Positions 3,382 through 43,563 of a stretch of 64,000 nucleotides of DNA are shown piece by piece; the first letter of the stretch is position 1; every line of letters starts with the position of its first letter. The translations under genes and the position numbers were made by a program. This DNA comes from Spirochaetota bacterium (GTDB lineage: Bacteria; Spirochaetota; UBA4802; UB4802). Under the pieces are notes generated by a model. That model was not told the origin of the DNA. It worked only from the letters and a program-made list of their open reading frames with translations, and ran no database searches. Location of the stretch: assembly GCA_035420565.1 (NCBI GenBank), contig DAOLVF010000002.1, positions 5,896-69,895 on the forward strand. The letters are read 5' to 3'.

Positions 3382-3404
3382 ATACTATATAAGGGTATGA
3401 TACT

Positions 3405-8402: not shown

Positions 8403-8406
8403 AGCA

Positions 8407-17863: not shown

Positions 17864-17882
17864 ACAGTAACTATCGCCCACA

Positions 17883-19208: not shown

Positions 19209-19520
19209 AACACCCTCGCTTTATTATTGTACTACACTATAAAAACATCTTTTTTACATTATTGAGTTGCTATAAAAAAATCAATAAAAAAATTATTATA
19301 CAGCAACCTATCATTGTGGTTACACATACTCTATGAACAACAGCAATGTAGATTACCATATATGGAATTATGGAACAAATGAGTATGATTGGCGATAGTT
19401 ACCGGTAAAAAAGTGATTGTAAAAAACCTATGAAAAGTGATTGAATAAATTCATTACCATACTTATATGCTGTGACAATAGCATTTTGAGCGCAAACAAA
19501 GAATCATGCCGTTGTGGGGA

Positions 19521-20999: not shown

Positions 21000-21518
21000 A
21001 TGGCAAAGGAACATAAAAATGCACCAATTATTTGTGCAGTTATTACCGGTATCGCACTAGCAGGAGCTGGTGTAGGCATATGGAAAAGTATGCCACTTAT
21101 TATAGCTCTCAGTATTATTCCAGCTATTGTCTATGAAATATACAGAACACAGGGTGTGTTTACAACATTGGCATCATGGCTAGCGCTGATCGTTACCATT
21201 GCAGCGCTATATGTTATCTATAAAAATACCATGATTGATATTGCCCCCTATATATCAAAATTTATGACACTGCCGGTTAATACAAAGCTTATACCTGTTG
21301 CATATGTTGCACCGGTTGTTCTTGTCATTATTGCTGTATTTTTGTTTAAGCAAACTGCAGGTATCTATACCCGCTGGTTAGCGCTTGTAATACTGTTAAC
21401 ATCAGTTGCGCTTTTCTATAGCCTGGACCCTTCATTTATTAAAAATCTACTTTCAACTCCGCAGGTTCAGCAAAACATCAAAGAAGGCGTAAAACGGGGG
21501 ATACGCAATATTCATTAA
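21000..21518 (+). CDS. hypothetical membrane protein (about 5 TM)
   Basis: Hydrophobic helices throughout. AAGGAGG RBS. Confidence 0.5.
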   Translation: MAKEHKNAPIICAVITGIALAGAGVGIWKSMPLIIALSIIPAIVYEIYRTQGVFTTLASWLALIVTIAALYVIYKNTMIDIAPYISKFMTLPVNTKLIPVAYVAPVVLVIIAVFLFKQTAGIYTRWLALVILLTSVALFYSLDPSFIKNLLSTPQVQQNIKEGVKRGIRNIH

Positions 21519-21523: not shown

Positions 21524-22687
21524 TTACTGTATAGGCGCTGTAATTACTTTGTAATTATTACAGTACTTTTCATATATTGTCATTATACAATTATAATTAA
21601 TGGATAAAAATTCGTTAGCGGTAAATCCAACGGGATTTTCCTTCCTGTAGCTCTTGATATGAAATGAAGCGAGCACCCGTTGAGCATTGATCATATACTG
21701 TCCATCAATCTTTTCAATATACCCTTTCTTGATGCAAAATTTTAAAAACCGTTTTAATTTTTTGTGGCGATAGTTACTATCCAAAAGGTATTCATCAATA
21801 CCGGGCAGTTTCCCTTCTTTGACCAGCACAATAATATCATTGATGACAGTATCTAACTGTGATGCCAATTCTTCTTTTTTAAGAACTATCGCTTTATCAA
21901 TATTTTCAACCGCCATTGCCATGCGCTGGAGATATGTTGCAGCAATCTGACTGAAGGTTATGGTATGTAAACTTTTTAAAATTTCAGAAACTCTATCTAA
22001 AAATTTTTCTTTATCCCCAAGCATAAAAAAGGGCTCCCCAACATTTATAAAAATATCCTTTTTACCGGCTATGCAACGGTCAACCTTAACATTAATTGGC
22101 AGTATATATAATTTTTGCCTGAAGTGGCGATAGGTACTATCAACAAGCTGGAATATCCCACTGCGTAAATTTTTTAAACCTCCAAAACTCCACGTTGTCC
22201 CTTCCGGAAATATAAGCGTAGAAAAACCACTATGTATAGAATGTTTAAACTTTACCATCTGAGAGTGTATCTCATGTTTCACCTGATTTTTATTGTCAAA
22301 ATCTTCTATGAAGGGGCGTGGAATATCAATCAGTTTCATCTTTTTGAAAAAAGCTTTTGGCAACCCTGTTTTATCTAAAAAATAAAAAAAATAATAGAGC
22401 AGTTTATTCTTTTCTCCAAAATTTGATGCCAGATAGTTCCCACTTAAAAAATCTTTTTTTGCCATTACCACAAAGTGTGGACGTGGTTTCAATGAATAAT
22501 ATACCTTTGAAAGGGATGGCACCTCAAAATAGCTATCATGCGTAGGGGCAAATATTACAAGGTGGGGGATTTTTTTTAGATATTCTTTCCCTTTTAAATG
22601 AGCTTTATGCCGCATAATCAATGAAGCAACTTTAAAACAGAAAATAAAAAATTCATAGACTATGCCATTTGATGGCTGCATATACAT
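21524..22687 (-). CDS. putative lysophospholipid/glycerol-phosphate acyltransferase-like protein (PlsC-like)
   Basis: PTHDSYFE (H-x4-D-like) and FPEGTTW motifs resemble acyltransferase blocks I and III. The match is weak. Confidence 0.45.
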   Translation of the reverse strand: MYMQPSNGIVYEFFIFCFKVASLIMRHKAHLKGKEYLKKIPHLVIFAPTHDSYFEVPSLSKVYYSLKPRPHFVVMAKKDFLSGNYLASNFGEKNKLLYYFFYFLDKTGLPKAFFKKMKLIDIPRPFIEDFDNKNQVKHEIHSQMVKFKHSIHSGFSTLIFPEGTTWSFGGLKNLRSGIFQLVDSTYRHFRQKLYILPINVKVDRCIAGKKDIFINVGEPFFMLGDKEKFLDRVSEILKSLHTITFSQIAATYLQRMAMAVENIDKAIVLKKEELASQLDTVINDIIVLVKEGKLPGIDEYLLDSNYRHKKLKRFLKFCIKKGYIEKIDGQYMINAQRVLASFHIKSYRKENPVGFTANEFLSINYNCIMTIYEKYCNNYKVITAPIQ

Positions 22688-22817
22688 ACCTCAAACCACT
22701 TTACTGGTATAAAAATAAACTATTCACCAGCAATTGTCAATAGTAAAAAATACATTAAAGTATAATGAAAAGCATGGTGTTTTCATCTTCAAATGATTGC
22801 ATTCCTCTTAAAATAGA

Positions 22818-22970
22818 ATACCGTGTCATTCTGAGAGACCCAGTCCCCAAGAATCTATCCTTTCATAAAAAGCAGAGATTCTTCACTTCGTTCAGAATGA
22901 CATCCCCATGCCACAGTGAGATTTTTTTCTTCGACTTCGCTCCACACAGACGGCTTCAGCTCAGAATGAT
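22818..22970. repeat. MITE-like element copy C
   Basis: ATACCGTGTCATTCTGAGAG...CCAAGAATCT...AGATTCTTCACTTCGTTCAGAATGAC...GCTCAGAATGAT. Shares its 5' module with copy A and its 3' module with the copies at 36.3 and 49.0 kb. Confidence 0.6.
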
Positions 22971-23146
22971 AGACGCTAAATATGTTCATCCCTTATGGCT
23001 GGATGAATGCTCTGCCATAAGCAACTACCCTAAAATTGCCTAAAATAATATTCTATAGGTGTTATCGTTTGATTTATAATACAATATTTTTTTAAAATTT
23101 TTTATTTTTTTATTTTGCTATTGACAAGAATTGCTATATATTTAAC

Positions 23147-23207: not shown

Positions 23208-23948
23208 ATGGTTATTGATTACATGGAAGAATTTAAATATTCAAAGGAAACTCGAACTGTCATATTGCAGGCTGCAAAGACGGAATTTGCTGAAAAAGGC
23301 TATGATGGTGCCCGTTTAAGTTTAATTGCTAAGCGAGCGGGGGTAAACCAGGCACTTATCCACTATTATTTTTCCAATAAGGAAAAACTATACCTTGAAG
23401 TGCTGCAATACCTGTTTCACCATGGAGAAATCAGCATTATCCGGGAACATCTGAAAGATGTTACATTAAATCCTAAAGAGGCTCTTTTTACAGCAATCTA
23501 CATACTGGTATATCTGCATCATAATGCCATTGATCCTGAAATAAATAAAATTATTTCATGGGAATTAGCGCAGGGTGGCGATAAATTTAAAATGCTCCTT
23601 ACCGATTATATGTTACCCAAACTCAACATGCTGTCGCAGGTAATTCAGGAGGGTATAGAAAGCGGGGACTTTGAAACTGATGATCCTTTTCTTGTTGTCT
23701 TTAACCTTACCAATATGGTTTTATCATTTGAAAATAGCAAACAATATCTCAAAGACACACCATGGTATGATCGCTTCTATGGCGGTGATAATGGAAAAAA
23801 GTTATTTGAGTTTGCCTTAAAAAGCACATTCAAGTCATTAGCCCCCAAACATAAAGCTTGTGAGATACCGCAAATAAATGAGGATTTAAAACATAAACTT
23901 GAAGAAATTATGCAAAAACTTAAAAACACTTCGGAGCATGAAAAATGA
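23208..23948 (+). CDS. TetR/AcrR family transcriptional regulator
   Basis: HTH motif TRTVILQAAKTEFAEKGYDGARLSLIAKRAGVNQALIHYYFSNKEKLY. Confidence 0.85.
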   Translation: MVIDYMEEFKYSKETRTVILQAAKTEFAEKGYDGARLSLIAKRAGVNQALIHYYFSNKEKLYLEVLQYLFHHGEISIIREHLKDVTLNPKEALFTAIYILVYLHHNAIDPEINKIISWELAQGGDKFKMLLTDYMLPKLNMLSQVIQEGIESGDFETDDPFLVVFNLTNMVLSFENSKQYLKDTPWYDRFYGGDNGKKLFEFALKSTFKSLAPKHKACEIPQINEDLKHKLEEIMQKLKNTSEHEK

Positions 23949-25396
23949 CAGTTAAATGCAACACAATTTTTAAAACAATACTATCAGTATTCATGTATTT
24001 GGTACTGTTTATAATTACCGCAACAGGTACAATCTATGCACAAAATCCATTAACATTAAAAGAAGCTATAGATATAGCACTCAAAAACAATAACACCTAT
24101 AAAGTAGCATTATTGAAGGTGGAAGAAAACCGCTATAAGGTGCGCGAAAGCTGGGGGATGTTATGGCCAAAACTTTCTACGGATGTTTCCTATACCCGCC
24201 AATGGTATGAAGCCGGTTTCCAATCGCAGGTTGAAGGACAATATAATGTCAAAATTATTAATGGGGAGATATCTATAAATCCCGGTACATTTTATAATAC
24301 ATTACAATCCTCACGCAACAATTTTATTGCCAGCGAACATGATGCAAGGAGGGTAAAGGCTGATACAACTGTCACAACGCTGAGGCTCTACTATCAGATA
24401 TTGCTGACAAAGGAATTGATAGCCATGCATGAGGGATCACTAAAGGCATTGGAAGAAAATTTACGTATAGTGACAATTGGCTATCAAAAGGGAACTTTTT
24501 CAAAATTGGATTTTTTACGCGCCAAGGTAGCCTACAACAACGAAAAAACACAGCTGATCAATGCAAAAAATGATTATTTAACAGTGTGCGCTACATTTAA
24601 TATTCATCTAAACCGGGAAATAAATGAAGCCCTTATACTGGACGAATCTGTTTTAAAGGTGCATGATGAAGATTTACAATACCTTGTTCTTGAAGAAGCC
24701 AAAAAAAATGAGATCGTTGGACAGCTTATTGCATTGGCTTTGAAAAATCGTCCAGAACTTTTGCAATTGACTTATTCCAAGACAGCACTGGAATATGCAA
24801 CCGATGCAACCTCATCCGTTTATCTATGGCCAAGTTTTTTTGTGAGCGGTAGCTATGGCTCAAGCAAGAATATATCAAAGGATGGTGGGGGAGGACTTAC
24901 GCCAACAGGGGACCCAACTATAGACCCAATTTTACTGGCTATGAGTCAGGGTATGTCCGATAGTTTTGCTCCCAGTGGCTGGAACGACAACTGGATGATA
25001 ACCTTTGGTGCTACCTATAAGTGGGGTGGATGGTCACCACTGGATAGCACCCATGCTAAAGCTAAACAGTTAGAAAGCCAAACAAATCAGATAGATTTAC
25101 AACTACAGGATTTTATTAAAAGCATACGCCTTGATATCCAGAGTGGATTTTTAAAATTGGAATCAGCGTCAAACTCTATCTATTCACAGCAGGGTAATGT
25201 GGAAACTGCCGAAGAATCCTTAAAGACTGCTACCATACAGTTTAGAAATGGTATTATTGATAATTCAAAATTTTTAGAAGCAAATGTAGCTCTTATCCAG
25301 GCTAAAACATTGTATATTCAGGCATTATATGATTATAAGGTATCACAGGCCGAATTGAATAAGGCAACTGGTATTGATTATTTTACAATTCAATAA
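23945..25396 (+). CDS. TolC-family outer-membrane efflux protein
   Basis: Signal peptide and two OEP repeats with a coiled-coil/beta pattern. Start overlaps the TetR stop. Confidence 0.8.
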   Translation: MTVKCNTIFKTILSVFMYLVLFIITATGTIYAQNPLTLKEAIDIALKNNNTYKVALLKVEENRYKVRESWGMLWPKLSTDVSYTRQWYEAGFQSQVEGQYNVKIINGEISINPGTFYNTLQSSRNNFIASEHDARRVKADTTVTTLRLYYQILLTKELIAMHEGSLKALEENLRIVTIGYQKGTFSKLDFLRAKVAYNNEKTQLINAKNDYLTVCATFNIHLNREINEALILDESVLKVHDEDLQYLVLEEAKKNEIVGQLIALALKNRPELLQLTYSKTALEYATDATSSVYLWPSFFVSGSYGSSKNISKDGGGGLTPTGDPTIDPILLAMSQGMSDSFAPSGWNDNWMITFGATYKWGGWSPLDSTHAKAKQLESQTNQIDLQLQDFIKSIRLDIQSGFLKLESASNSIYSQQGNVETAEESLKTATIQFRNGIIDNSKFLEANVALIQAKTLYIQALYDYKVSQAELNKATGIDYFTIQ

Positions 25397-25424
25397 TTGC
25401 TAAACGAACCATGGAGGTTTTATA

Positions 25425-26351
25425 ATGAAAAAAGGCAGAGCAAAAACAATCTTAACTATTGTTGCTATTATAATTGCACTCATTGCATCCTATAGATTGG
25501 TCATGTTTGTAGTTGAGTTAATAAATCCCCAAAAACAGGTGGAAGAGGAGCATGTTGTCGCTGTTAAGGCTGCAAAAGCTGTTCGTATGGATATCACAAA
25601 GACCCTTGATCTAAGCGGTGATATTGTTGGCAAAGAGGTTGTTCATGTATTTCCACAGGTACCAGGCAAGGTTATGGAGATTCAGGTAAAAGAAGGGCAA
25701 TATGTTAAAAAGGGGCAGGTTGTATTCAAGATAGACAGAGACATAATTGGAATGGAATATATGCCGGCTGTGGTAGAGTCACCATTAACAGGCTATGTTG
25801 GCACCATCATGGTGGACAGAGGCATGTCGGTTACTACACAAACCCCACTTGCGCAGGTGGTAACCATGAATCAGGTTGAGGCTGTGGCACAGCTTATTGA
25901 GGAGCAGATTAACATGGTTCAAATTGGTATGAAGGCTAAGGTGCGCGTAGTATCATTCCCCAACACCTCTTTTACGGGAACGGTGTACCGAAAAACTGCA
26001 TTGCTTGATGCAGCAAGCAGAACACAGGAGGTACGTATACTTATTGATAATCCTCAGTTAAAACTGAGGCATGGCATGTTTGCAGATATTCAGATAATAC
26101 TTGGCTTTGTTAAAAAGGCTGTCATTATCCCGTCCGACTGCATTATGAGCGATGCTTCTGGCAATTACTATGTGTTTAAAGTAATCGACAACAAGGCATT
26201 TAAACAATCAATAACACCAGGCTATGTACACAAAAACATAACAGAGGTTGTATCAGGTATCAATGATGGAGATGTTGTGGTAACATTAGGAAAAGAAAAT
26301 GTAAAGCACGGCGTTAAACTGCTGGTATACATGGAAGAGATTAATTATTAA
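25425..26351 (+). CDS. RND efflux periplasmic adaptor (membrane fusion protein, HlyD/AcrA family)
   Basis: N-terminal TM anchor plus biotinyl-lipoyl-like and beta-barrel domains (VKEGQYVKKGQVVFKID). Confidence 0.85.
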   Translation: MKKGRAKTILTIVAIIIALIASYRLVMFVVELINPQKQVEEEHVVAVKAAKAVRMDITKTLDLSGDIVGKEVVHVFPQVPGKVMEIQVKEGQYVKKGQVVFKIDRDIIGMEYMPAVVESPLTGYVGTIMVDRGMSVTTQTPLAQVVTMNQVEAVAQLIEEQINMVQIGMKAKVRVVSFPNTSFTGTVYRKTALLDAASRTQEVRILIDNPQLKLRHGMFADIQIILGFVKKAVIIPSDCIMSDASGNYYVFKVIDNKAFKQSITPGYVHKNITEVVSGINDGDVVVTLGKENVKHGVKLLVYMEEINY

Positions 26352-26382
26352 GCGATAGCATCATTATAAGGAGTTTCATGGT

Positions 26383-29300
26383 ATGAAAATTACAGATATT
26401 TCTGTTAGCAGGCCAGTAACAGTTAGCATACTGTATATTGGTATTATTATACTCTCAGTTGTGAGTTATTACTTTATTGAATTAGACTTTTTCCCTGATG
26501 TTGAATTCCCTATTGCTGTAGTATACGTTGAATATGAAAATGTAGGACCAAAGGAGATAGAAAACTCGGTGACCAAACCTCTTGAAGAGGCAGTAGGGTC
26601 CGTTAATAATGTTGATTATGTTACTTCCGTTTCCAAAGAAGGCATGTCCTCAATCACCATTAAGTTCCAGTGGGGTACTGACATGGTAGAGGCAGTAGCC
26701 GATATCCGCGAGCGCATTGACATGGTACGAAGTAGACTGCCTGAGGGTATTGAAAACCCGGTAACTGTAAAATTTGATATATCAATGCTTCCTATTATGG
26801 GACTGGCAATAACCGGAGAGCGCGAGCGGTCATATATCAAGAAATATGCTGAGGATAATATAAAGAATCTTATAGAGCAAACTGATGGTGTTGCTTCGGC
26901 ACAGGTTGTAGGAGGTGAGGACCTTGAAGCTAAGGTTGAGCTCATTAAGAGCAGAATGGATGCCTATAGATTATCGATTGACCAGATTATACAGACACTT
27001 GCCCTTGAAAATCAAAATATAGCCGGTGGTGACATCAAAACCGCGTACACAAAATATACATTCCGTACCGAGGGTGAGTTTAAGTCCCTGGATGATATGC
27101 GCAACATCGTCGTTGCAGTGCGCAACAATACGCCAATCTATTTACGCGATATCGCTCGTGTTTCATTTGAGCCTGGCGAGGTAAAGGATATTGTACACAT
27201 CAATGGTGAAAATGGTACGGTAATGCTTATCCAGAAACAGTCGGGCAAAAATACTGTTCTGACTGTTCGAAATGTTTACAAAAAATTGGAATCGATAAAG
27301 CCAACACTTCCTGCAGGCTTTGATATACGTCCTATCTTTGATCAGGGGGAGATGATACAGTTCTCAATACAAAACCTTTTAAATAATCTTATTCAAGGAA
27401 GTATTATATCTATTGCTGTTGTTCTGCTTATATTGCGTAATATCAGGGCATCACTTTTAGTAGGGTTATCAATACCAATATCCGTTATCACCTCATTTGT
27501 TTTGATGTATTTATTTGATCTATCTCTCAACATGATGTCACTGGGCGGGTTGGCAATTGGTGTTGGTATGGTTATTGACAATGCTATAGTTGTAACCGAT
27601 AATATTTTTCGATATCGTGAAAAAGGGGCGCGCCTTAATGAGGCATCAAAACTTGGAACGGATGAGATGGGGGGAGCAATCACAGCCTCTACCCTTACCA
27701 ACCTTGTGGTATTTGTGCCATTTATGTTTAGTGCAGGGTTAGCCGCTCAGTTGTTTACCGATATGGCATTGACCATTACATTTTCAATGATGAGTTCATT
27801 GTTTGTTGCTTTAACCCTTATCCCCATGCTCATTGCAAAGTTTGTACCTACAATAGAGCATCACTATACCGGCAGATCAAATGTTCTACAGCCTCTATTT
27901 GATAAAAGTGAAAAATTCTTCATTGATTTAGAGAACTTTTATGGCAAAGCAATAAACTGGGCACTGGATAATAAAAAAAAGGTTATTGGCTTTGTTGGCA
28001 TAACCTTCCTTATTGGTTTAATATTGATACCACTGTCGGGGATGGAGTTTATGCCTGAACGCGACGATTCCAGAATAACCATAATGGCAACCCTTCCTAT
28101 AGGGACCAATCTTGATGAAACTACTAGAATTATGAAACTAATAGAAGAGCGCACATTGCCAATATTTAAAGAGGAAGAATTAAAGGTAGTCATGGTTAGG
28201 GCAGGATATGGAAAGGGAACCAATGCAGCATTTAATGATTTAACTGACTATAAAGCAAGGATCCAGATAGAATTAAAGATGCGAAAATACCGCGAACGAT
28301 CAAAGGCTGAAATACGTGATATTTTGCGAAAGGCATTACAAGGAATCCCAGGGGTTACCTATAACTTTACCTACCAGAGCAGGGGATCAAGTTCAATAGG
28401 AATGGGTTCTGAAGGAGCCACCATCTCCATTGAGGTATATGGTTATGACTTTGAACAATCCAATCAATATGTTCAGAGTATTACAAACAGTATTAAAAAC
28501 ATACCTGGTTTAAAAGATATAGATATATCCCGTGAAGAAGGCTTACCCGAAAAGGTAGTGGTGGTCAACAGGGAAAAGGCATCAAAGATGGGCATCAATG
28601 CCTATCAGGTTGCCAATCTTATCAAGGACAATGTTTCTGGTTTTGTAGCCTCTCGCTATCGTTTTGAGGGTGATGAGTACGACATCAATGTGCGATTGCG
28701 CGAGGCTGATAGGCAAACGGTTGAACAGATTAAGTCATTGGAAATTGACACTCCTATGGGAAAACGAATAAAGATAGGGAGCATAATTGATGTTATTGAC
28801 AAAACAGGGCCAACTGCTATAGACAGAAAGAATCACGAACGGGTAGTATACATTAACTGTAAGGCTGAAGGAAGAGCTCTCAGCACTGTTGCTGCAGATA
28901 TAAATTCAGCACTCAATAAAATTCCAAAACCACAAAATTTTTATGTATCAATTGGTGGATCGTATGAGGATATGCAGGATACCTTTAATGATCTGCTGCT
29001 GGTATTAATTCTGGGTGGCATACTAACCTATGTTATTATGGCAGCACAGTTTGAATCACTGATCAGGCCATTTATCGTAATGTTTTCAGTTCCTACCTGT
29101 ATGTTTGGTGTTTCATTATTCATGTTTTTAACAGGTTCACAGTTCAGTGTTGCTACACTTTTAGGTATCATTATGCTGGTAGGTATAGTGGTCAATAATG
29201 CGATAGTTCTTGTGGATTATACTGATATTTTAATACAACGGGGATGGGGTTTACGCGAAGCGCTGGTTGAAGCCGGAACAAAACGACTCAGGCCAATTAT

Positions 29301-29508
29301 GATGACTACCCTCACAACTGTACTTTCGCTAATCCCTATGGCATTCAGTGGCGGTGATGGATCTGAAATGTCACAACCAATAGGCAGAGCCGTTATGGGT
29401 GGCATGAGTACGGGATTTATTTTTACACTTATATTTATTCCTGTTATATACATGATCGTTGAAACCAGGCGTGAAAAGTATTCGGCAAAACATAAAGCAA
29501 AGTTTTAA
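26383..29508 (+). CDS. RND efflux permease (AcrB/CzcA superfamily, 12 TM)
   Basis: 1041 aa with the typical TM1-large loop-TM2..6 duplication and conserved AcrB motifs. Confidence 0.95.
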   Translation: MKITDISVSRPVTVSILYIGIIILSVVSYYFIELDFFPDVEFPIAVVYVEYENVGPKEIENSVTKPLEEAVGSVNNVDYVTSVSKEGMSSITIKFQWGTDMVEAVADIRERIDMVRSRLPEGIENPVTVKFDISMLPIMGLAITGERERSYIKKYAEDNIKNLIEQTDGVASAQVVGGEDLEAKVELIKSRMDAYRLSIDQIIQTLALENQNIAGGDIKTAYTKYTFRTEGEFKSLDDMRNIVVAVRNNTPIYLRDIARVSFEPGEVKDIVHINGENGTVMLIQKQSGKNTVLTVRNVYKKLESIKPTLPAGFDIRPIFDQGEMIQFSIQNLLNNLIQGSIISIAVVLLILRNIRASLLVGLSIPISVITSFVLMYLFDLSLNMMSLGGLAIGVGMVIDNAIVVTDNIFRYREKGARLNEASKLGTDEMGGAITASTLTNLVVFVPFMFSAGLAAQLFTDMALTITFSMMSSLFVALTLIPMLIAKFVPTIEHHYTGRSNVLQPLFDKSEKFFIDLENFYGKAINWALDNKKKVIGFVGITFLIGLILIPLSGMEFMPERDDSRITIMATLPIGTNLDETTRIMKLIEERTLPIFKEEELKVVMVRAGYGKGTNAAFNDLTDYKARIQIELKMRKYRERSKAEIRDILRKALQGIPGVTYNFTYQSRGSSSIGMGSEGATISIEVYGYDFEQSNQYVQSITNSIKNIPGLKDIDISREEGLPEKVVVVNREKASKMGINAYQVANLIKDNVSGFVASRYRFEGDEYDINVRLREADRQTVEQIKSLEIDTPMGKRIKIGSIIDVIDKTGPTAIDRKNHERVVYINCKAEGRALSTVAADINSALNKIPKPQNFYVSIGGSYEDMQDTFNDLLLVLILGGILTYVIMAAQFESLIRPFIVMFSVPTCMFGVSLFMFLTGSQFSVATLLGIIMLVGIVVNNAIVLVDYTDILIQRGWGLREALVEAGTKRLRPIMMTTLTTVLSLIPMAFSGGDGSEMSQPIGRAVMGGMSTGFIFTLIFIPVIYMIVETRREKYSAKHKAKF

Positions 29509-29520: not shown

Positions 29521-29808
29521 ATGGTGATGTTATTTATTGTATATCACAATGCTGTTGATGAAGAGGTTGTTGAGATAACAAAAAAGTATGCAAAAGGGTA
29601 TACAAAGTTTGTAGGTGTACTGGGTGAAGGGAATAAAGAGCCACAATTAGGGACGCATATATGGGGAGGGCTTAACAACTGTTTGATGGTAGCAATAGAA
29701 GATAATAAAATGAAAGATGCTATTGCGTCCGATATAGCATCTTTAAAGGTTAAATTTAAAGATGCTGGCGTTAGCATTTTTGTATTGCCGTTAAAAGAGA
29801 TGCTTTAA
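29521..29808 (+). CDS. small PII-like / DUF3240-like protein immediately downstream of the RND pump
   Basis: 95 aa. Beta-alpha-beta pattern with GYTKFVGVLGEG and IFVLPL. Its position after an RND permease is typical for DUF3240. Confidence 0.45.
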   Translation: MVMLFIVYHNAVDEEVVEITKKYAKGYTKFVGVLGEGNKEPQLGTHIWGGLNNCLMVAIEDNKMKDAIASDIASLKVKFKDAGVSIFVLPLKEML

Positions 29809-31694
29809 ATAGAGAGTGTTGTAAAGGGGATTGTCGGTTTACCGTCAATCCCCAGAGTTTTATATATCATATTTTGATCATCATCATCCTCAAAGCTTAC
29901 AATATCAATACATTCAGCGTACTGTTCTTTTATCCATTGGCCATATATCCCTGCACAACCTTTTGCCACAACAGCCGGCACAGGATAGGCAAAGTGATAC
30001 TGTGTAATTTCATCATAATTGCTGCGCAACAGTTTAATGATAGGGTTGATACAGCGGTAATGGTCTTTAGCTCTGAGATATGTTTTCAATGATTCAAATA
30101 CCTGGAAGATACGCACAGGCAGCTTATCATAGGTATCCTGAAAATACATCATCCTGCAATAAAAGGTATTATGTGTTGCTGTAAATACTTTGCTGGCAAT
30201 ATCCTCATCGTTAAGAACTGCATCATACATAAGGACAATTGAGCAGAGCATTGTGTCCCATGGATACTGCTGGATTATTAATTCTACGGCATGTTCAATT
30301 TGCGGGTAACTATCGCATAGCAAATAAAAGGTAATATGACTTGTTTGCATATAATCAAATACTTCCATAGGGATGGAACGGCGCTTTGTAAGGTCAATGC
30401 AGGCTCCCGATACAAGCTCCCCCTGCTGAAAAATGAACGATGGCAGGTATGGGGTATCAAAGGTAAACCCTGTGGTGTCTTCAAAATAACATGTGATGGC
30501 TGTTATATCATGCTGCGTAAAATTGAACCCTTCAATGAGGTAATAAGGTGGCTTTTGCAAAAATGTTGCACCTGCAGCAATTGCCTCATCATACAGAGCG
30601 GTACCCGGCAGCACCATCAGTGGGTAAAGTTCCAGTTCATTCCCAAGCCCTGCATCAAGCAGAGTGTCCATTGTTGTATAAAATGATTCAGGGGTATCAT
30701 AGGGAAGCCCGGGGATTATGCCAACCTGTAAATTGATGCCTGCATCTTTTAAATAGAATATCCCCTGTAGCTCTTTTTCCGGGTTTGTTTTTCTGCCAAT
30801 CTTTTGTAAACATTTTTTATTTAATGTTTGAATGCCTACCTCAGCGCTACGGAAATTGGCTTTCTTTAAGGTCATAGCAATGTTGCTGGTAATGGTATCG
30901 GCCCTGAGCTCAGTATGCAGTGAGACAGAGCATCTGCTGGATATCAGTGTTTGCAGATAATCATTGAAGTGTGATGATTGATTAAATGTAGGGGCTAAAA
31001 GATACAGTTCCTGTATTTCATCACTCATACTTTTTTTGATAATATCGGCAAGCTTGTGCGGCGGTAAGGCTCTGACCCTGCTGGTATTTTTAGAATAGAG
31101 ACAATAGGTGCATTTGAAAGGACACCCCCGAATAATTTCAACACTCAGGCTTTTATCATGCATTGGTGTGAGGTATCCAGATGTATAGGGTTCCACTATC
31201 TGTGACAGCGGAATAAAGGTGTCAGAGCCCTGAATAAAAACGGCGTTACCATTGACCATATGAATAAATTGTTTGCAGGTATTGTTATAGTAATGATTGA
31301 AAAAATATTCGCCTTCGCCAATGACAAATATATCTATGCACGGTTGGTGCTGTTTCAGGATATATGAGTTTACCTGTATTTCTGGACCACCAAAGAGTAT
31401 TATGATATGTGATGCCATAGCCTTAATCGTTTTAGCAATTGCCAGTGAACGCTCTACATTCCACAAATAGCAAGTGAATGCAACATGCGTTGGCTCATTG
31501 TGCAAAATATGATTCACAATCATCGAATCAGAGCCATAGTTCTGGATGCTATACGGCAGTTGTAATCCTTTCATGGTACCACCAGAGGTTAGCTCACAGA
31601 AGGCGTGCAGGGTTGCAGCAGCATTGGGGATATTACCGGTAATGTACTGTAATCCATGATCAATCAGCGGAAGTTGTACAAATTGAATCTTCAT
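29805..31694 (-). CDS. B12-binding domain radical SAM protein with a long C-terminal extension
   Basis: rSAM cluster motif GCPFKCTYCLY (C-x3-C-x2-C) preceded by a Rossmann-like B12-binding N-domain. About 250 aa of unassigned C-terminal sequence. Confidence 0.85.
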   Translation of the reverse strand: MKIQFVQLPLIDHGLQYITGNIPNAAATLHAFCELTSGGTMKGLQLPYSIQNYGSDSMIVNHILHNEPTHVAFTCYLWNVERSLAIAKTIKAMASHIIILFGGPEIQVNSYILKQHQPCIDIFVIGEGEYFFNHYYNNTCKQFIHMVNGNAVFIQGSDTFIPLSQIVEPYTSGYLTPMHDKSLSVEIIRGCPFKCTYCLYSKNTSRVRALPPHKLADIIKKSMSDEIQELYLLAPTFNQSSHFNDYLQTLISSRCSVSLHTELRADTITSNIAMTLKKANFRSAEVGIQTLNKKCLQKIGRKTNPEKELQGIFYLKDAGINLQVGIIPGLPYDTPESFYTTMDTLLDAGLGNELELYPLMVLPGTALYDEAIAAGATFLQKPPYYLIEGFNFTQHDITAITCYFEDTTGFTFDTPYLPSFIFQQGELVSGACIDLTKRRSIPMEVFDYMQTSHITFYLLCDSYPQIEHAVELIIQQYPWDTMLCSIVLMYDAVLNDEDIASKVFTATHNTFYCRMMYFQDTYDKLPVRIFQVFESLKTYLRAKDHYRCINPIIKLLRSNYDEITQYHFAYPVPAVVAKGCAGIYGQWIKEQYAECIDIVSFEDDDDQNMIYKTLGIDGKPTIPFTTLSI

Positions 31695-32321
31695 TGAAAT
31701 GGATCAATAAGGTGTAATGAAATCTTCAAGTAACTATCGCCTGCAATTCTTTATTACATAATTTATAAAACTATAAATGCATCCAATGCATCCGTTGAAC
31801 ATATACAACTATTATTATACGTTATTTGAAATCAATAATTTTATCAACAAATTAACCTGAATTTATCACTATTGGGTTTACCATGCTTTTTGATACAATG
31901 AAAGCCATTGCAACAATTTCAACACAATGTTTTTAATAGTTTCAATAAATAGAAGGATTAAATATAATTATTTGTTATATATTATAACAACATATTATAT
32001 AAATAATATATTTTTTTATTTTAATATAAAAAAATATTTGACATAAAATGAATAGTAATTTCTTATCGTAAAAGTTTACTATTAGATAATAAAAAACTGC
32101 ATCAATACATTATAGTTTATTTTGGCTACACTAACTGGTAATTGTAAGAGTAATTACTCTATCAGTAAAACGATTATGATGTAGCGGAATACCTTTGAAG
32201 GATATATTATTATCTTTTAAAAAAGAAAAACATTGGGTTGGGTGTAGCCAAAATTTTTGTTTTATTTTTTTTTGCACTACTCACCAGAAAAAACTTAATA
32301 CCTTATCCCAACGGGATGGAA

Positions 32322-32945
32322 TCATATAGTATCAGAGGTAAATGGTCCTCCATCCAATACAAAAAAACCATACTCGGCAAAAAGGTTGGGCATAATAGGT
32401 ATTGTTACTGAATGAGAACGAATGGTTGAAAAATGCATTTCTTTTTTTATAGGATAACCAAACGCATTGCAAAAATCTCTGAAGTCCTTAATTGTTAAAA
32501 GATGTATATTCGGTGTTTCATACCATTCATAGGGTAATAATTTATTTTTCGGCATTCGGCCATAGATTGAAATATACAACCTCAGGCTATAATGGGCAAA
32601 GTTAGGAAAACTGAAGATAGCATTTAATGATATACGAAGCGATTCGCGTATAACAATCTCTGGTTTTTTTGTACTTTGCAACGTCTGATTAACAATCACA
32701 TAATCAAATGAATTGTCTTTATAATCGTTTAACCCTTCATCGATGTCGCCCTGATAACAGTACAATCCTTTTTCAACACATTGGCTTACACCTTCCGGTG
32801 AGATTTCAACACCAAATCCTTTAACTTTTCTTGTAGTTTGTAGCAACTTCAACAACTGACCATCACCACATCCTAAATCAAGCACCCGTGCACCATATGG
32901 AATCTCTTTTAGAATCAAATCATATGCAACCCTGTATTCCTTCAT
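32322..32945 (-). CDS. metW: methionine biosynthesis protein MetW (SAM-MTase-fold partner of MetX)
   Basis: VLDLGCGDGQLLKLL motif, about 200 aa, immediately downstream of metX with an overlapping stop/start. Confidence 0.75.
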   Translation of the reverse strand: MKEYRVAYDLILKEIPYGARVLDLGCGDGQLLKLLQTTRKVKGFGVEISPEGVSQCVEKGLYCYQGDIDEGLNDYKDNSFDYVIVNQTLQSTKKPEIVIRESLRISLNAIFSFPNFAHYSLRLYISIYGRMPKNKLLPYEWYETPNIHLLTIKDFRDFCNAFGYPIKKEMHFSTIRSHSVTIPIMPNLFAEYGFFVLDGGPFTSDTI

Positions 32946-34105
32946 TACCGGTGAACCTTTTCAAACTCCCGTTTTAAAAAATTAGCTATATTATGCTCCA
33001 ATTGTTCATGTGGCAGTAGAAATGTATCATGCCCTTTATCACTCTGTATTTCGGTAAAAATAACATTTTTGCTGTTCATACGCAACGCTCTAACAATCTC
33101 GCGCGATTGTGAAGTTGGGTATAACCAGTCAGAAGAAAAACTTATAACAAGGTAATTAGAATTTACATTAACAAAAGCATTAGCCAGATCACCATTAAAA
33201 TCATTCTTCAAATCAAAATAATCAATAGCTTTTGTGATATACAGATATGAGTTAGCATCAAATCTCTGAACAAAATCATTCCCTTTATGGTGAAGGTATG
33301 ACTCAACTTCAAACTCAAGATCCAGGTGAAATTTAAAAATATCTGAATGTTGCAATCTTCTGCCAAATTTTTCGTGCATCAGCTTCTCGCTCAGGTAGGT
33401 TATATGTCCAATCATACGCGCAAGTGATAGTCCATTCTTAGGATTTTCATTGTTATAATATTTACCATAATTCCAGTTGGGATCAAGCATAATTGCCTGT
33501 CTGCCAACTTCATTGAATGCTATTCCCTGTGCCGAAAGAGACGCTGCCGTTGCAATTGCTACTACAGACTGCACCATCTCAGGATATGATATTGACCATT
33601 GCAATGCCTGCATCCCACCCATTGAACCTCCAACAACTGATAAAAGCTTTTGTATCCCCAAAAATTTAATTAAATGATATTGCGCATTTACCATATCCTG
33701 AATAGTGACAATGGGAAAATCCAAACCATATTCTTTTCCCGTTTCAGGATTAATGGATGATGGACCGGTTGAACCGCTGCATCCGCCAATAACATTGGAA
33801 CAAATAACAAAATAGTGTGATGTATCAAAAGTTTTACCGGGACCAATATAAATATCCCACCAACCCGGATATATATCTTTTTTTGAATGGTATCCTGCCG
33901 CATGTGCTGAACCTGAAAGGGCATGAAGTATTAATATGGCATTACTTTTGTCACTGTTAAGAGTACCGTATGTTTCATAGGCTAATGTTATTGGCCCAAG
34001 TTTTTTCCCTGAAACCAATAACAATTCATCAGGTGGCTCAGCAAAAGTGAAATAATTAGTAGTAACGATACCAGCCGAATTTCCAGGTATTATCTCCGCT
34101 TTCAT
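32945..34105 (-). CDS. metX: homoserine O-acetyltransferase
   Basis: Alpha/beta hydrolase with [12 protein letters not shown] nucleophile elbow. Full-length MetX similarity. Confidence 0.9.
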
Positions 34106-34130: not shown

Positions 34131-34290
34131 AAAATAAAAAAACGCTTACCGGAAGATCGTGTAAGCGGATACTTATTGCTATCTCATCTCCCGGAATATC
34201 TTCCGCTGGAATTGGCACCGGCTTTTCGTTCCGGTTGCCGTGGTTTCACAGGGCCAGTCCCTCTACCACTCTTGATAAGATAGTACGATT
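34131..34290 (-). promoter_or_regulatory. SAM-I (S-box) riboswitch with intrinsic terminator in the metX-metW leader
   Basis: Minus-strand sequence CUUAUCAAGAGUGGUAGAGGGACUGGCCCUGUGAAACCACGGCAACC...GGUGCCAAUUCCAGC...GAGAUGAGAUAG matches S-box P1-P4 conserved elements. It is followed by CCGCUUAC-loop-GUAAGCG plus a U7 terminator, then the RBS AAGGGGGAG and the metX ATG. Confidence 0.85.
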
Positions 34291-35973: not shown

Positions 35974-36250
35974 AACAACCCTCCTCCAAAAAAATTACAA
36001 TATCGTGGTCTATGCCATCCCTCAGTGTGTTTGTATCGGAGTGATGCATCTTCACATTGCATTTATCTATTCATAGTCATTGCACAACCTATTACATTTT
36101 GGCAAAAATATCTTTTCTCTATCAACATGATTGCCATGATAGTTTTTATCCTCGAAATAACATTACCCTATCGTTTATCATATTTGTATAACAACAGCTC
36201 AATGTTTCTTCCCCACCCAAAAGAGCATATGGCTCCTCCGAAAATAGAAG

Positions 36251-36479
36251 TATGTGCCAATGTCATCCCAGACTTTGTCCGGAATCTCTTTTTCCACATT
36301 CGTCATTCCGGGCTTGCCACGGAATTTAAATATGTAATCTTAGAGCCTGAAATGATACTGAAACCGGTTCAGAACATTATTCAGGATGACACACCCCACA
36401 TTGTTATTCTGAGGAACGCAGCCCCGAAGAATCTATTCGTTTATAAAATGACGAGATTCTTCACTTCGTTCAGAATGAC
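36251..36479. repeat. MITE-like element copy D, full-length 229 bp
   Basis: TATGTGCCAATGTCATCC...TTCAGAATGAC. The same length and termini as copy E at 48885..49113. Composed of four GTCATYC...GAATCT hairpin modules. Confidence 0.7.
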
Positions 36480-36865
36480 TATCGGTTTCGCCTCAGCATG
36501 ACGATACTATGCAATTTTCATCCCCTACGGGTAGTCCATCGACAACTATCTCATAGAAGCACTCTATTGAACACTATATGTTGTATTCCACCTTGTGTGT
36601 ATATTGTTATACCATATTCCTTTGCTATACTTTTTTATTATATTAATTCATTCTGTTATTTTCTTATTGACCATAAACAAACTGTACAATGTGTCAATCA
36701 ATTATTTTATTTCATCGCATAGTTATAACAAATAGTTCTTTAAAAATATTGCAATGTTGGTAAAAAAATTATTGAAGAAAATACAATAATAGCGTAAGTG
36801 CAATGAAGTATTATTCAATTCCAGCAATAAATGAAAAAAGTTTACAATACCATAGGATAATCCAC

Positions 36866-40432: not shown

Positions 40433-40816
40433 TTGTATAATTATTTTCCGGTGAAAAGGAGATATTCAATAAAAGGGCGGAGGAGTTTTAAAGATGTTAT
40501 TGTTAATGGCAGACGATTTTATAGTAAAGGTATACGAATGATAGTGCATATACAACCAGCACATGAAACATTGTTTATTGGGAATGAGTCAGTTTCACAT
40601 TTTTCCATAGCTGTTAATAAAAATTTTGGGGATGCAGTTGAACGTAACAAAATCAGAAGAAGAATAAAATCTATACTTAATACTCTTTTGCCTCAGATAC
40701 AACAGGGTTTTGCTGTTATTATTTTTCCTGATAAAACCTGTAAGGCAATGCCATATACTCACCTTTCAGGTTTGGTAAAACAATTGTTGCTTAGATCAGG
40801 AGTGCTCAAACAATGA
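40433..40816 (+). CDS. rnpA: ribonuclease P protein component
   Basis: Basic protein with RNR motif [11 protein letters not shown], directly after rpmH. The start codon is non-ATG (TTG at 40433 or GTG at 40451), so the 5' end is uncertain. Confidence 0.8.
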
Positions 40817-41034
40817 AGATAAATATTATTTCATTGCCAATATTATTGATAAAAATGTATAAGCTTATTATTTCACCATTGTTACCCAATGTTTGCAGAT
40901 TTTATCCAACATGTTCAAGCTATGCAATAGAAGCATTGAGCAAACATGGACTCTGTAAAGGTGGTTTTTTATCAATCAAGCGGATACTACGCTGTCATCC
41001 ATATTGTGACGGTGGGTATGATCCTGTTCCTTAG
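40813..41034 (+). CDS. yidD: membrane protein insertion efficiency factor YidD
   Basis: [27 protein letters not shown]...[14 protein letters not shown], the canonical YidD motif. Confidence 0.9.
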
Positions 41035-41144
41035 CACAATTCTTGACAGTTACCCCTCATATCACTCCTTTTCACCTATTATAATATTTCAATAATAGTC
41101 ATATTTTTTTATTTTATATCTAGAAAGTTAAACAAGAGGTTGTT

Positions 41145-42764
41145 ATGGAAAAAAGGGCTTTAATTGCAGTTTTATTATCTTTGCTGATATGGATATTATG
41201 GTTTTATTTATTTCCGCCGCAGGAAAAAAAACCTGCAGTTCAAGATAAGAAAGTTGAAGTTGAACAAACGGTTGAAATTAAAAAACCTGAATTGAAACAA
41301 CTTTCAAAATTCCTGGAATTATCCCGCTTAAAGGAAGAAGTGACTGTTGATTCACATTATTATAAAGCCGTGCTTTCCAATCATGGCGCTGCATGTACCT
41401 CGTTCATTGATAAAACCCGAAATATTGAGCTTGTGGTCAATAAAAGCAAATACATTGCCAGGGGTATTTTTGATTTTCCTGTACATTTTACAACTGGAGA
41501 ATTTTTGCTATCAACAGAAAGTGATTATACAAACTGGAAATTACAAAAAGAAACAGATTCGATACGCTTTTTTACAGGTGCTATCGTGCAAAATAATCCA
41601 TTGCACATTGTAAAGACATTTACCTTTGATGAAAAAGGGCAATTTTTTACGGTGTCATTCAGTATCACCAATAGAGCTATAAATGAATTTTCTTTTCCTG
41701 AAGGCAGATTAATTTATTCTCCTTCAGATTTTTTAGGCCCCTCAATGGATTTTAATAATTCGTACAACGAGTTGAACAGTATATATTATCTTGATGATGA
41801 TTTTGAAAAGGCACGGAAAGGCTCAGGATTTTTTTCAAACCATGAGGATATAAAAGAGATCAATGGTGTTGTAAAATGGGCAGGCATCATGAGCAGGTAC
41901 TATCTGCTCATAATGATACCGCAAGGTTTTCAGGGTTCTGGTGTTGTTTACGATAACAGGGAACATACTGGATTCAGGACGGGGATTATTGTACCGGCAA
42001 AACCTCTAAAGCCTGGCGAAAAAATAGAACACGTTTTCAAGATATATGTTGGGCCTAAAAATAAGGATAAACTTTTAGCTGTGGATAAACAGATTGGAGA
42101 TGCAGCCGATGTAAGCAAATGGATAGAGCCTATACGTGATTTTATGATGTGGTGTTTGCTTGGCATTAATAAATTGTTAGGGAATTTAGGCTGGTCATTA
42201 GTAATATTTTCAGTTATAACAAAAATAATGTTCTTACCCTTAACCAAACGTTCTACTGAGTCAATGAAGAAGATGCAGGAATTAAACCCAGTTGTTCAAG
42301 AACTTCGCGAAAAGTATAAAGATAAGCCTGATATCTTGAATAAGAAGATAATGGAAGTATATAAAAAGAACAAGGTCAACCCCATGGGTGGGTGCTTACC
42401 ACTATTGTTGCAAATGCCATTTTTCTTTGCACTTTATAGCGCTCTGATTAATTCTGTAGATTTATGGCAGGCACCATTTATTTTGTGGATTAAGGATCTT
42501 TCATTACCTGATACTGTTTTCACCATTTCAGGATTCAACATTAATATTTTACCTATAGTGATGACAGCAACAACATATTTACAACAAAAAATGTCTACTG
42601 GCGAAGCTTCTCAGCAGCAAAAAATGCTTTTGTTTATGCCACTTATATTTATAGTTATATTCTGGAATATGCCATCCGGATTGGTATTATACTGGATCAT
42701 GCAGAATGTTTTACAAATAGCTCATCAAATGGTAGTAAACCGGAAACCAAAGACTGAAAAGTAG
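41145..42764 (+). CDS. yidC: membrane protein insertase YidC (long periplasmic domain form)
   Basis: N-terminal TM, large periplasmic beta-domain, and a C-terminal 60-kDa-IMP core (GGCLPLLLQMPFFFALY). Confidence 0.95.
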   Translation: MEKRALIAVLLSLLIWILWFYLFPPQEKKPAVQDKKVEVEQTVEIKKPELKQLSKFLELSRLKEEVTVDSHYYKAVLSNHGAACTSFIDKTRNIELVVNKSKYIARGIFDFPVHFTTGEFLLSTESDYTNWKLQKETDSIRFFTGAIVQNNPLHIVKTFTFDEKGQFFTVSFSITNRAINEFSFPEGRLIYSPSDFLGPSMDFNNSYNELNSIYYLDDDFEKARKGSGFFSNHEDIKEINGVVKWAGIMSRYYLLIMIPQGFQGSGVVYDNREHTGFRTGIIVPAKPLKPGEKIEHVFKIYVGPKNKDKLLAVDKQIGDAADVSKWIEPIRDFMMWCLLGINKLLGNLGWSLVIFSVITKIMFLPLTKRSTESMKKMQELNPVVQELREKYKDKPDILNKKIMEVYKKNKVNPMGGCLPLLLQMPFFFALYSALINSVDLWQAPFILWIKDLSLPDTVFTISGFNINILPIVMTATTYLQQKMSTGEASQQQKMLLFMPLIFIVIFWNMPSGLVLYWIMQNVLQIAHQMVVNRKPKTEK

Positions 42765-42914
42765 CAACATGGAAACGAGGATAAATGTAAGTCTTAATGC
42801 AAAAATTATAGTACATTAAATACAATATGAGATTTCTACCATTTTTTGATTTTTTCAGGAGGTGTGTAACAAATACTATTATCATAATTCATTATTATAA
42901 GTATCATAGGAGGC

Positions 42915-43562: not shown

Positions 43563-43563
43563 G

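Follow-up and report, generated by a model that had tools for sequence, protein, structure and literature searches.

The window, the whole 64,000-nucleotide stretch of Spirochaetota DNA that we analyzed, carries on its reverse strand a gene for a B12-binding radical SAM (rSAM) protein, with an RND efflux operon converging on its 3′ end and an AT-rich spacer in front of its start (Table 1). The TAA of the last operon gene occupies 29806–29808 and the rSAM stop codon is the complement of 29805–29807; the two stops thus overlap by 4 bp, as an earlier note on this DNA, made from the sequence alone, had described for the small gene ending the TetR–TolC–adaptor–RND operon. The same note had taken the 95-aa product for a PII-like DUF3240 protein, and this assignment had to be changed. 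The protein scores 67.3 bits with NF045581 (PG0541), for which the cut-off is 45, and its residues 3–90 cover profile positions 2–91 of 91, whereas DUF3240 gave no match at E ≤ 10 and P-II remained below threshold (E 0.023; 15.5 bits, cut-off 25). A search by sequence found no solved relative. Small PG0541 or P-II-like proteins ending RND operons are known, and the 95-aa gene likewise is the last in its operon.

Table 1. Features at the rSAM locus, in window coordinates
Feature	Position	Strand	Basis or remark
TetR–OEP (TolC-like)–HlyD-type adaptor–AcrB-type RND pump operon	23208..29508	+	Pfam; syntenic neighbor
TetR	23208-23948	+	
OEP	23945-25396	+	
HlyD-type adaptor	25425-26351	+	
AcrB-type RND	26383-29508	+	
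95-aa PG0541-family transporter-associated protein, last RND operon gene	29521..29808	+	NF045581
629-aa B12-binding radical SAM protein gene, stop codon included	29805..31694	-	ORF
Family-specific beta/alpha domain, aa 395-629 (~235 aa)	29808..30512	-	acidic, pI 4.7
Radical SAM partial-barrel core, ~aa 176-394	30513..31169	-	
C191-x3-C195-x2-C198, predicted [4Fe-4S]-binding motif	31101..31124	-	
Cobalamin-binding Rossmann domain (N-terminal), ~aa 1-175	31170..31694	-	
Trp78 codon	31461..31463	-	aligns with TokK Trp76 and CysS Trp75 (profile alignment)
AT-rich intergenic space metW–rSAM, 627 bp	31695..32321	.	27-31% G+C
12-mer GGCGATAGTTAC	31730..31741	-	first base 47 nt before rSAM ATG
13-bp perfect inverted repeat ATTTTGGCTACAC / GTGTAGCCAAAAT	32119..32254	+	encloses 110 nt

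The rSAM gene is real and well conserved, and the earlier description of its product as a 629-aa B12-binding radical SAM protein was borne out by two Pfam domains above cut-off, B12-binding at aa 58–132 (35.6 bits, cut-off 32.1) and Radical_SAM at aa 185–344 (67.6 bits, cut-off 29.5). The protein has the C-x3-C-x2-C motif within a partial TIM barrel that marks the radical SAM superfamily and, before this core, the N-terminal Rossmann-type B12-binding domain that marks class B. Within the Rossmann domain, Y17, N21, F73, W78, R82 and the GEGE at 126–129 are invariant. C191, C195 and C198 are the only invariant cysteines in the family and an auxiliary cluster is therefore not expected; the SPASM/twitch trait of extra conserved C-terminal cysteines for such clusters was not found in the family. 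The AlphaFold2 model of the full-length protein (pLDDT 94.3, pTM 0.93) suggests that the three domains pack as a single unit. The protein is acidic and has no strongly hydrophobic segment (maximum Kyte–Doolittle mean over 19 residues, 1.53), and the median pI across the family is 5.3 for the whole protein and 4.9 for the C-terminal domain.

The C-terminal 235–250 residues had been noted as matching no family, and all our searches agreed with this. Residues 376–629 gave no Pfam match at E ≤ 10, a Foldseek comparison of the domain with the PDB gave none at E ≤ 0.001, and its profile did not match the sister B12-rSAM families; the only likeness seen was to generic TIM barrels. Aligned with hhalign to the rSAM core and to the Rossmann domain of the same protein, it reached probabilities below 1% and is thus not an internal duplication. 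In an exhaustive profile search of 1.84 billion representative proteins, the domain was recovered only in its own family and fragments, and no other architecture carried it, so by sequence the domain appears private to this rSAM family. Its invariant or near-invariant residues are E405, T408, G409, P418, T451, R514, Q531 and F601. The large extra region pointed out earlier is thus present and family-specific, but it is no oddity in itself, as big idiosyncratic C-terminal domains are usual for this enzyme class.

We found 557 homologues of the rSAM protein; the best 120 were nearly all full length, with the N terminus aligned from Met1, and the family comprises ~40 full-length clusters at 50% identity. 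Every named full-length homologue came from an uncultured Spirochaetota metagenome-assembled genome. The word "orphan", used in the earlier note, is therefore apt for a gene without a partner but not for one without relatives. Outside the family, uncharacterized sister B12-rSAM families occur in Deltaproteobacteria, Omnitrophota, Treponema, Clostridia and Brevibacillus. They have in common with the spirochaete family the FSxYxWN loop, the C-x3-C-x2-C motif and 24–36% identity over the first ~330–470 residues, and the sister genes examined stand alone too, but the C-terminal regions of the sister proteins do not match the C-terminal domain profile of the spirochaete family. None of the eight sister-family proteins checked reached a curated NCBIfam cut-off. 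The spirochaete protein adds to an enzyme class that is large and for the most part unstudied.

Some of the most difficult biological methylations are the work of cobalamin-dependent radical SAM enzymes and, to our knowledge, a substrate or a structure has been established for only a handful of them. In a profile search of the PDB with the rSAM protein, the first match was TokK (7kdx, E 1.7e-27, residues 66–373), followed by CysS (9n1b, E 2.2e-22). TokK and ThnK are sequential methylases of carbapenem C6 (PDB 7kdx), and CysS is the iterative O-alkyl methylase of cystobactamid (PDB 9n1b), 16% identical to the rSAM protein. The likeness is confined to the first ~400 residues, although TokK has the same three-domain layout, in which a large C-terminal domain follows the Cbl-binding Rossmann domain and the radical SAM core. 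In the alignment with 7kdx and 9n1b, the loop SCYVWN of the rSAM protein lies over tsYlWN, and W78, present in 117 of 117 family members, stands in an xYxWN context common with W76 of TokK and W75 of CysS. In both solved enzymes this tryptophan lies 3.8 Å below the cobalt, and among characterized methylases only TokK, ThnK and CysS have a tryptophan there (PMC13331322, PMC12846815, TokK preprint). As TokK W76 variants are still active (TokK preprint), Trp78 speaks for common ancestry but does not prove the chemistry.

Other parts of the comparison fit less well. Two residues past the third cluster cysteine, at the place of the active-site W215 of TokK and of the C-F-W of CysS, the tryptophan is absent and an invariant tyrosine (Y200, C-x-Y) stands instead, retaining an aromatic residue. 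No counterpart of the TokK and CysS C-terminal substrate-binding domains was found in the rSAM protein; in CysS this domain is residues 433–630 and provides a helix of the substrate cavity and the loop with Phe485. The CysS gene is part of a natural-product cluster, but the spirochaete gene is alone in a housekeeping region; in 17 distinct contexts we saw no TokK- or CysS-style cluster with NRPS, PKS, carrier-protein or tailoring genes. The best NCBIfam match of both the rSAM protein and the sister families was NF033712, the KedN5 family of methylcobalamin-dependent radical SAM C-methyltransferases, yet its 79.7 bits fall far short of the required 700, and only profile positions 52–389 of 624 aligned. 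The scores were also remote for BchE (TIGR02026, 58.5 bits against 481), HpnR (TIGR04367, 43.5 against 650), HpnJ (TIGR03471, 41.2 against 578), PhpK (TIGR04479, 51.7 against 600) and the ladderane-type lipid enzyme (TIGR04072, 60.4 against 360), and no bacteriochlorophyll, hopanoid, phosphonate or ladderane genes lie near the rSAM gene. With all 39 NCBIfam matches far below their cut-offs, we rejected orthology to a characterized B12-rSAM enzyme, the finding that the earlier note had said would overturn its reading.

We consider that the protein is most likely a methyltransferase and, at a probability of roughly 55%, specifically a soluble, stand-alone, three-domain cobalamin-dependent (class B) radical SAM methylase of the TokK/ThnK/CysS clade. 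In favor of this reading are the two Pfam domains above cut-off, the invariant C-x3-C-x2-C with no further invariant cysteine, the top PDB profile matches, the universal W78, the aromatic Y200, the KedN5 subfamily as best NCBIfam match, the confident full-length model, the acidic sequence without a strongly hydrophobic segment and the lack of a conserved co-directional partner gene. Against it stand the curated methylase scores far below cut-off, the replacement of TokK W215 by tyrosine and the C-terminal domain without a counterpart. We infer that the protein binds cobalamin and transfers a methyl group, and we likewise infer what kind of substrate it acts on. The N-terminal Rossmann domain would hold cob(I)alamin in the base-off state, where one SAM methylates it, and the [4Fe-4S] cluster at C191/C195/C198 would cleave a second SAM, generating a 5′-deoxyadenosyl radical. 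This radical would take a hydrogen from an unactivated substrate carbon, and the resulting substrate radical would receive the methyl from methylcobalamin. The acidic, TIM-barrel-like C-terminal domain may close the active site and select the substrate, by analogy with the unrelated C-terminal domains of TokK and CysS.

The gene is presumably transcribed alone, in a housekeeping, origin-proximal part of the chromosome, and because of this stand-alone location its substrate is probably a primary cellular molecule, that is, a small metabolite, a lipid or a protein. A small metabolite could possibly be tethered to pantetheine, CoA or ACP, as for TokK and CysS; a product of a biosynthetic gene cluster is an unlikely substrate. 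In brief, our best reading is a stand-alone TokK/CysS-type methylase with a soluble substrate. A bolder proposal, which we regard as tentative and would expect to fail more often than hold, is that this is the first TokK/CysS-type cobalamin-dependent radical methylase of primary metabolism, a lineage-wide housekeeping enzyme of uncultured Spirochaetota with a new TIM-barrel-like recognition domain, methylating an unactivated carbon of a core cell component such as a cofactor, a protein or an acyl chain carried by ACP or CoA. If true, it would point to a methylated metabolite or lipid characteristic of these spirochaetes. More generally, should the substrate be a primary metabolite, lipid or protein, it would be a new methylated component in spirochaetes widespread in anaerobic digesters and sediments, and the chemistry would extend beyond antibiotic pathways. 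As it stands, the protein is a well-documented one of a known class and not surprising to a specialist. The family is nevertheless a useful target, being sharply delimited and outside biosynthetic gene clusters, with a confident model, a private C-terminal domain and the Trp-under-cobalt signature that is seen elsewhere in TokK, ThnK and CysS, which methylate iteratively.

The strongest competitor, which we consider improbable though worth weighing, is a B12-domain enzyme that does not methylate, either a cyclase or an enzyme of rearrangement or ring contraction (BchE, OxsB), or a dehydratase (AprD4). The N-terminal domain of AprD4 is not known to bind cobalamin. In our protein the B12-binding domain scores above cut-off and the Trp-under-cobalt loop is invariant, and by sequence its closest solved relatives are TokK and CysS, both methylases, rather than AprD4, OxsB or TsrM.

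A further alternative, to which we give rather little credence, is methylation of a peptide or protein encoded elsewhere, either a RiPP precursor or a basic housekeeping protein, as Mmp10/MgmA acts on MCR and RimO on ribosomal protein S12. The gene neighborhood speaks against this alternative. Among the 17 contexts there was no conserved co-directional partner of the rSAM gene and no conserved precursor-peptide, lipid or cofactor gene beside it, and the earlier statement that such genes are missing from its immediate neighborhood withstood this check of conserved neighbors. No conserved short ORF adjoins the gene upstream or downstream: in clade B the upstream spacer is only ~60–175 nt and shared with a divergent gene, and we rejected a precursor peptide within the 627-bp spacer of the window as the short ORFs in it are AT-rich and fail to recur outside the closest relative. 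Protease, transporter and RRE-type partners are absent, and the cut-offs for RiPP rSAM C-methyltransferases were widely missed (TIGR03975, 58.6 bits against 281.85; ApyD, 31.1 against 750).

The convergent operon raises the idea that the enzyme is coupled to RND efflux, by modifying an exported compound or through regulation by convergent overlapping transcription with the PG0541-family gene. In its favor, the convergent pairing recurs in four clade-A genomes with 56–99% protein identity, and in three of the four (the window's species, P0002 and P0009) the two stops share exactly 4 bp. In clade A, however, the acyltransferase and PFK genes on the flanks are conserved together with the operon, which points to plain synteny. 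Members of the rSAM family at 35–38% identity have pyrF–Macro or an RR–GGDEF–EAL gene in that position and no RND operon, and another divergent member lies in a sigma70–hypothetical–rSAM–LeuA_dimer–topA row. As the pairing is missing outside one clade, it carries no information on rSAM function: it is plain synteny within that clade and not a functional partnership, and we hold coupling to efflux to be very improbable. We give just as little weight to an RNA-modifying enzyme that would go with the tRNA and rRNA modification genes near the origin: housekeeping genes tend to lie in that region anyway, the family is acidic including its C-terminal domain, TRAM, PUA, THUMP or other RNA-binding domains were not detected in the protein, and we know of no cobalamin-dependent rSAM RNA methylase.

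Other neighboring genes were considered as partners of the putative methylase and rejected. An FGGY kinase lies near the rSAM gene in Spirochaetota and in one deltaproteobacterial sister, but the kinases are only 22% identical and the shared location is thus a coincidence. PC4, RR-SpoIIE, pyrF and Macro recur in clade B, but tblastn (E ≤ 1e-8) found none of them in the 64-kb window or in two ~22-kb clade-A loci. On the upstream side, metX–metW with its SAM riboswitch adjoins the gene in just two cases, the window's species and the relative at 89% identity.

The spacer between metW and the rSAM gene is 94% identical in that relative (L093) and has no excess of sigma-70-like sites (13 against 14.4 in shuffles). 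The copy of GGCGATAGTTAC reported earlier at 47 nt upstream of the rSAM start is present, and in the window the 12-mer occurs in six exact and three one-mismatch copies against an expectation of 0.16, with as many seen in 0 of 100 shuffles. Upstream of the rSAM gene it has the same place in L093 (89% protein identity) and is absent in the 56–58% relatives. The motif recurs throughout the lineage and is not specific to the rSAM gene. We rejected a sigma-28 promoter, as visual inspection of eight sites showed the TAAA-N15/16 element at two and the genes that follow (nadC, PFK, rSAM and unknowns) are not flagellar, and also a plain −10 element, since there are copies between the ends of convergent genes and copies antisense to the nearest start. 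When metagenomes were scanned with the 14-mer GGCGATAGTTACTG, the matches were mostly single and chance-like; about 14 metagenome loci with 34–40% G+C carried the 12-mer twice or more, or its 8-base core four times or more.

The inverted repeat in the same spacer has no Rfam family, and the lack of a further copy in the window led us to reject a MITE. On the plus strand it is followed by a U-run and folds at −40.1 kcal/mol (z −3.4), and none of 200 shuffles folded equally well; the element is a candidate small RNA or terminator.

The radical SAM (rSAM) open reading frame (ORF) is not a product of chance: 557 homologues were found, almost all of the best 120 span the whole protein and can be aligned from the initial Met, and the full-length AlphaFold2 model, built from 117 sequences, has a pLDDT of 94.3 and a pTM of 0.93. 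The B12-binding and Radical_SAM domains claimed in the earlier note both score above their Pfam cut-offs (see the table), and the last 254 residues, described there as an unassigned region of about 250 aa, have no Pfam match even at E ≤ 10. Among 117 aligned family members, the cysteines of C191-x3-C195-x2-C198 are invariant and no other cysteine is, so the protein should lack a SPASM/twitch auxiliary cluster. Equally invariant are the GEGE motif (residues 126–129), Y17 and N21 in an N-terminal loop, and H260, E262, E285, Q289, R301, and Y357 in the barrel. The protein has no strongly hydrophobic segment, the maximum Kyte–Doolittle mean over 19 residues being 1.53.

As we compared the protein with curated NCBIfam models, no cut-off was reached: the top match, the KedN5 C-methyltransferase subfamily, gave 79.7 of the 700 bits required, and models for BchE, HpnR, HpnJ, PhpK, the ladderane-type lipid enzyme, and RiPP methylases were equally far from their thresholds. 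The protein thus has no characterised orthologue among these families, and the clear orthology that would have spoken against the earlier note was not found. The named full-length homologues (609–652 aa) all come from uncultured Spirochaetota MAGs, one labelled Leptospirales. The enzyme class is known; the subfamily to which the protein belongs is uncharacterised and has a narrow distribution. When PDB sequences were searched with the family profile, TokK ranked first (E = 1.7e-27) and CysS second (E = 2.2e-22), followed by AprD4 and Elp3. In the HMM alignment, S72-C-Y-V-W76-N of TokK pairs with t-s-Y-l-W78-n of the family, and W78 is kept in 117/117 sequences. Trp76 of TokK and Trp75 of CysS lie 3.8 Å below the cobalt in place of the usual lower ligand (PMC13331322; PMC12846815); this Trp, together with its sequence context, is confined among characterised methylases to TokK, ThnK, and CysS (TokK preprint). 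The FSxYxWN loop is common to uncharacterised sister families from Deltaproteobacteria, Omnitrophota, Treponema, Clostridia, and Brevibacillus, although these can be aligned to the protein over the first ~330–470 residues only. The alignment of the invariant W78 with TokK and CysS and the presence of the loop in the sister families place the protein in a broad clade of class B enzymes, marked by a Trp under the cobalt, whose characterised members are all radical C-methylases. The family departs from TokK at the active-site Trp215, two residues past the third Cys, where its counterpart is an invariant Tyr200.

Modelled separately with AlphaFold2, residues 396–629 form eight alternating strand–helix units (pLDDT 90.6). 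Foldseek found nothing in the PDB at E ≤ 0.001 (best E 0.065; highest TM-score 0.38 among the 50 matches listed), hhalign linked the domain to neither the rSAM core nor the Rossmann domain of the same protein, and the C-terminal regions of the sister families were not matched by the domain profile. When 1.84 billion representative proteins were searched exhaustively with HMMER, just 72 matches emerged, each at position ~395–630 of a ~625-aa protein or in an obvious fragment; the domain is private to the rSAM family. The C-terminal domains of TokK, TsrM, and OxsB are very unlike in architecture and share a role in substrate binding (TokK paper); for a member of the enzyme class, having a C-terminal domain of its own is to be expected.

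From these domains, motifs, and relationships we infer a stand-alone class B enzyme that would hold cobalamin base-off, Trp78 lying beneath the cobalt. A first SAM would yield methylcobalamin, a second SAM at the C191/C195/C198 cluster would give the 5'-deoxyadenosyl radical, and an unactivated carbon of the substrate would then be methylated, the pocket probably being formed by the private, barrel-like C-terminal domain and the invariant N-terminal loop. We give this reading a probability of about 55%. That the enzyme carries out some non-methylating chemistry seems unlikely.

In 17 distinct contexts, no precursor peptide, carrier protein, lipid-synthesis enzyme, or cofactor-pathway enzyme was conserved beside the rSAM gene, which bears out the claimed absence of precursor-peptide, lipid-modifying, and cofactor-pathway neighbours. 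The description "orphan" is apt in that the gene has no partner but not for the family, which is well populated. A protein or peptide target encoded elsewhere in the genome is an improbable alternative. The rnpA–(yidD)–yidC–jag–mnmE row, closely preceded by rpmH, shows the region to be housekeeping DNA close to the replication origin. This setting, the acidity of the C-terminal domain (pI 4.7; family median 4.9), and the absence of RNA-binding modules speak against RNA and against a natural product encoded by a gene cluster as the substrate of the proposed methylase, and in favour of a protein, a soluble metabolite, or an acyl or aryl group on a tether; given the same acidity and lack of modules, RNA modification is very unlikely. 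The enzyme would be of greater interest if its substrate proved a core cellular component.

The convergent neighbours differ between two clades. In clade A (56–99% identity; the window's species, P0002, P0009, and P0012), the gene always converges with a PG0541-family gene and a TetR–OEP–MFP–RND operon, past which acyltransferase and PFK genes are conserved too, and its upstream neighbour is metX–metW, a Big_5 surface protein, or acetyl-CoA hydrolase. The 4-bp stop overlap, read directly from the sequence (the rSAM stop is the complement of 29805–29807), occurs in three of the four, P0012 having a short gap. Pfam recognised all four gene types of the claimed efflux operon. The 95-aa protein is not the "PII-like DUF3240" product of the earlier note: it matches NCBIfam NF045581, "PG0541 family transporter-associated protein", over its full length (67.3 bits; cut-off 45), has no DUF3240 match, and hits P-II below threshold (E 0.023). 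The observation on the rSAM gene is otherwise confirmed and its interpretation largely right. In clade B (35–38% identity), the gene converges with pyrF–Macro, sometimes with an inserted RR–GGDEF–EAL gene; on the divergent side there is usually a response regulator–SpoIIE phosphatase, mnmG–rsmG is often found within a few kb, and dnaA–dnaN is also near. A small PC4-like gene (PF02229) recurs 0–3 kb upstream, often close to the rSAM gene; in locus L005 the two are direct neighbours, on the same strand and 76 nt apart. The clade-B neighbours, the PC4-like gene included, had no tblastn match (E ≤ 1e-8) in the 64-kb window or two ~22-kb clade-A loci. Coupling to the RND pump, suggested by the invariable clade-A pairing, is hardly credible since clade-B genes adjoin pyrF–Macro; the pairing is synteny, not function. 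In the divergent member P0165, the gene stands in a tight same-strand row (gaps 10–130 nt) of a sigma-70-type factor, a 359-aa protein without Pfam matches, rSAM, a 151-aa LeuA_dimer-domain protein, and topA (topoisomerase I).

Locations of features in the window and in related loci
Feature	Location	Strand	Detail
rSAM gene	29805–31694	−	629 aa
B12-binding domain	residues 58–132		Pfam 35.6 bits, cut-off 32.1
Radical_SAM domain	residues 185–344		Pfam 67.6 bits, cut-off 29.5
PG0541-family gene	29521–29808	+	95 aa; TAA 29806–29808
TetR, OEP/TolC-type, HlyD-type adaptor, AcrB-type pump genes	upstream of 95-aa gene	+	Pfam
metW	32322–32945	−
metX	32945–34105	−
SAM-I riboswitch	34181–34281	−	RF00162, 91.5 bits
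Inverted repeat	32119–32254		13 bp, perfect, around 110 nt; arms 32119–32131, 32242–32254
Acyltransferase gene	21524–22687	−
rnpA–(yidD)–yidC–jag–mnmE	40433–44925	+
ORFs without Pfam match (E ≤ 0.001)	21000–21518, 22765–23043, 36025–36501, 44930–47608, 51598–52122	+
12-mer copies	1281–1292, 17867–17878, 30306–30317, 31730–31741	−
12-mer copies	3374–3385, 19391–19402, 21766–21777, 22126–22137, 44980–44991	+
12-mer, other loci	L093 3714; L094 21857; L106, L114, L129, L205, L213, L214
PC4-like genes	L002 8306–8650; L005 9542–9844; L006 ~8258–8509; L007 ~8414–8638; L091 6716–7048; L218 6455–6775
P0165 gene row	L217 5875–12620

A metX–metW operon, preceded by a SAM-I riboswitch, is the immediate upstream neighbour of the rSAM gene, whose product consumes SAM, and shares its strand; this adjacency is seen only in the window's species and its closest relative. 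The 627-bp spacer between metW and the rSAM gene (27–31% G+C) is 94% identical to that of L093, the locus of a relative with 89% protein identity, and ~330 nt around the inverted repeat are almost identical despite the 11% protein difference. The plus-strand fold of the repeat (−40.1 kcal/mol, z −3.4) is followed by a U-run. The element matches no Rfam family, has no second copy in the window, and may represent a terminator or a small RNA.

The motif noted upstream of the rSAM start is indeed present, GGCGATAGTTAC lying 47 nt before the ATG. The window holds six exact and three one-mismatch copies against 0.16 expected, and the core CGATAGTT occurs 21 times against roughly 2.5 expected from base composition. 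The 12-mer is missing before rSAM orthologues at 56–58% identity, whose genomes carry it elsewhere; it is common to related clade-A spirochaete genomes and was not found in clade-B loci. It is a lineage-wide signal, not a feature of the rSAM gene. The window, relatives, and metagenome loci together gave 32 distinct sites. Half of these are intergenic; the flanks of the sites are A/T-rich, and copies stand alone or form direct or inverted pairs. Some copies lie 17–62 nt upstream of start codons in sense orientation, whereas others fall where the ends of two genes converge or are antisense to the closest start; the motif is not consistently promoter-like, and a reading as a sigma-28 element fails. 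It may serve as a promoter element or as an operator bound by a global regulator. Two copies (21766 and 22126; one exact, one single-mismatch) are antisense inside the acyltransferase gene and point to a 92-aa ORF at 22765–23043 and the TetR–RND operon. One Pfam-less ORF, of 892 aa, may have a mis-set start, as a 12-mer copy falls 50 nt inside it.
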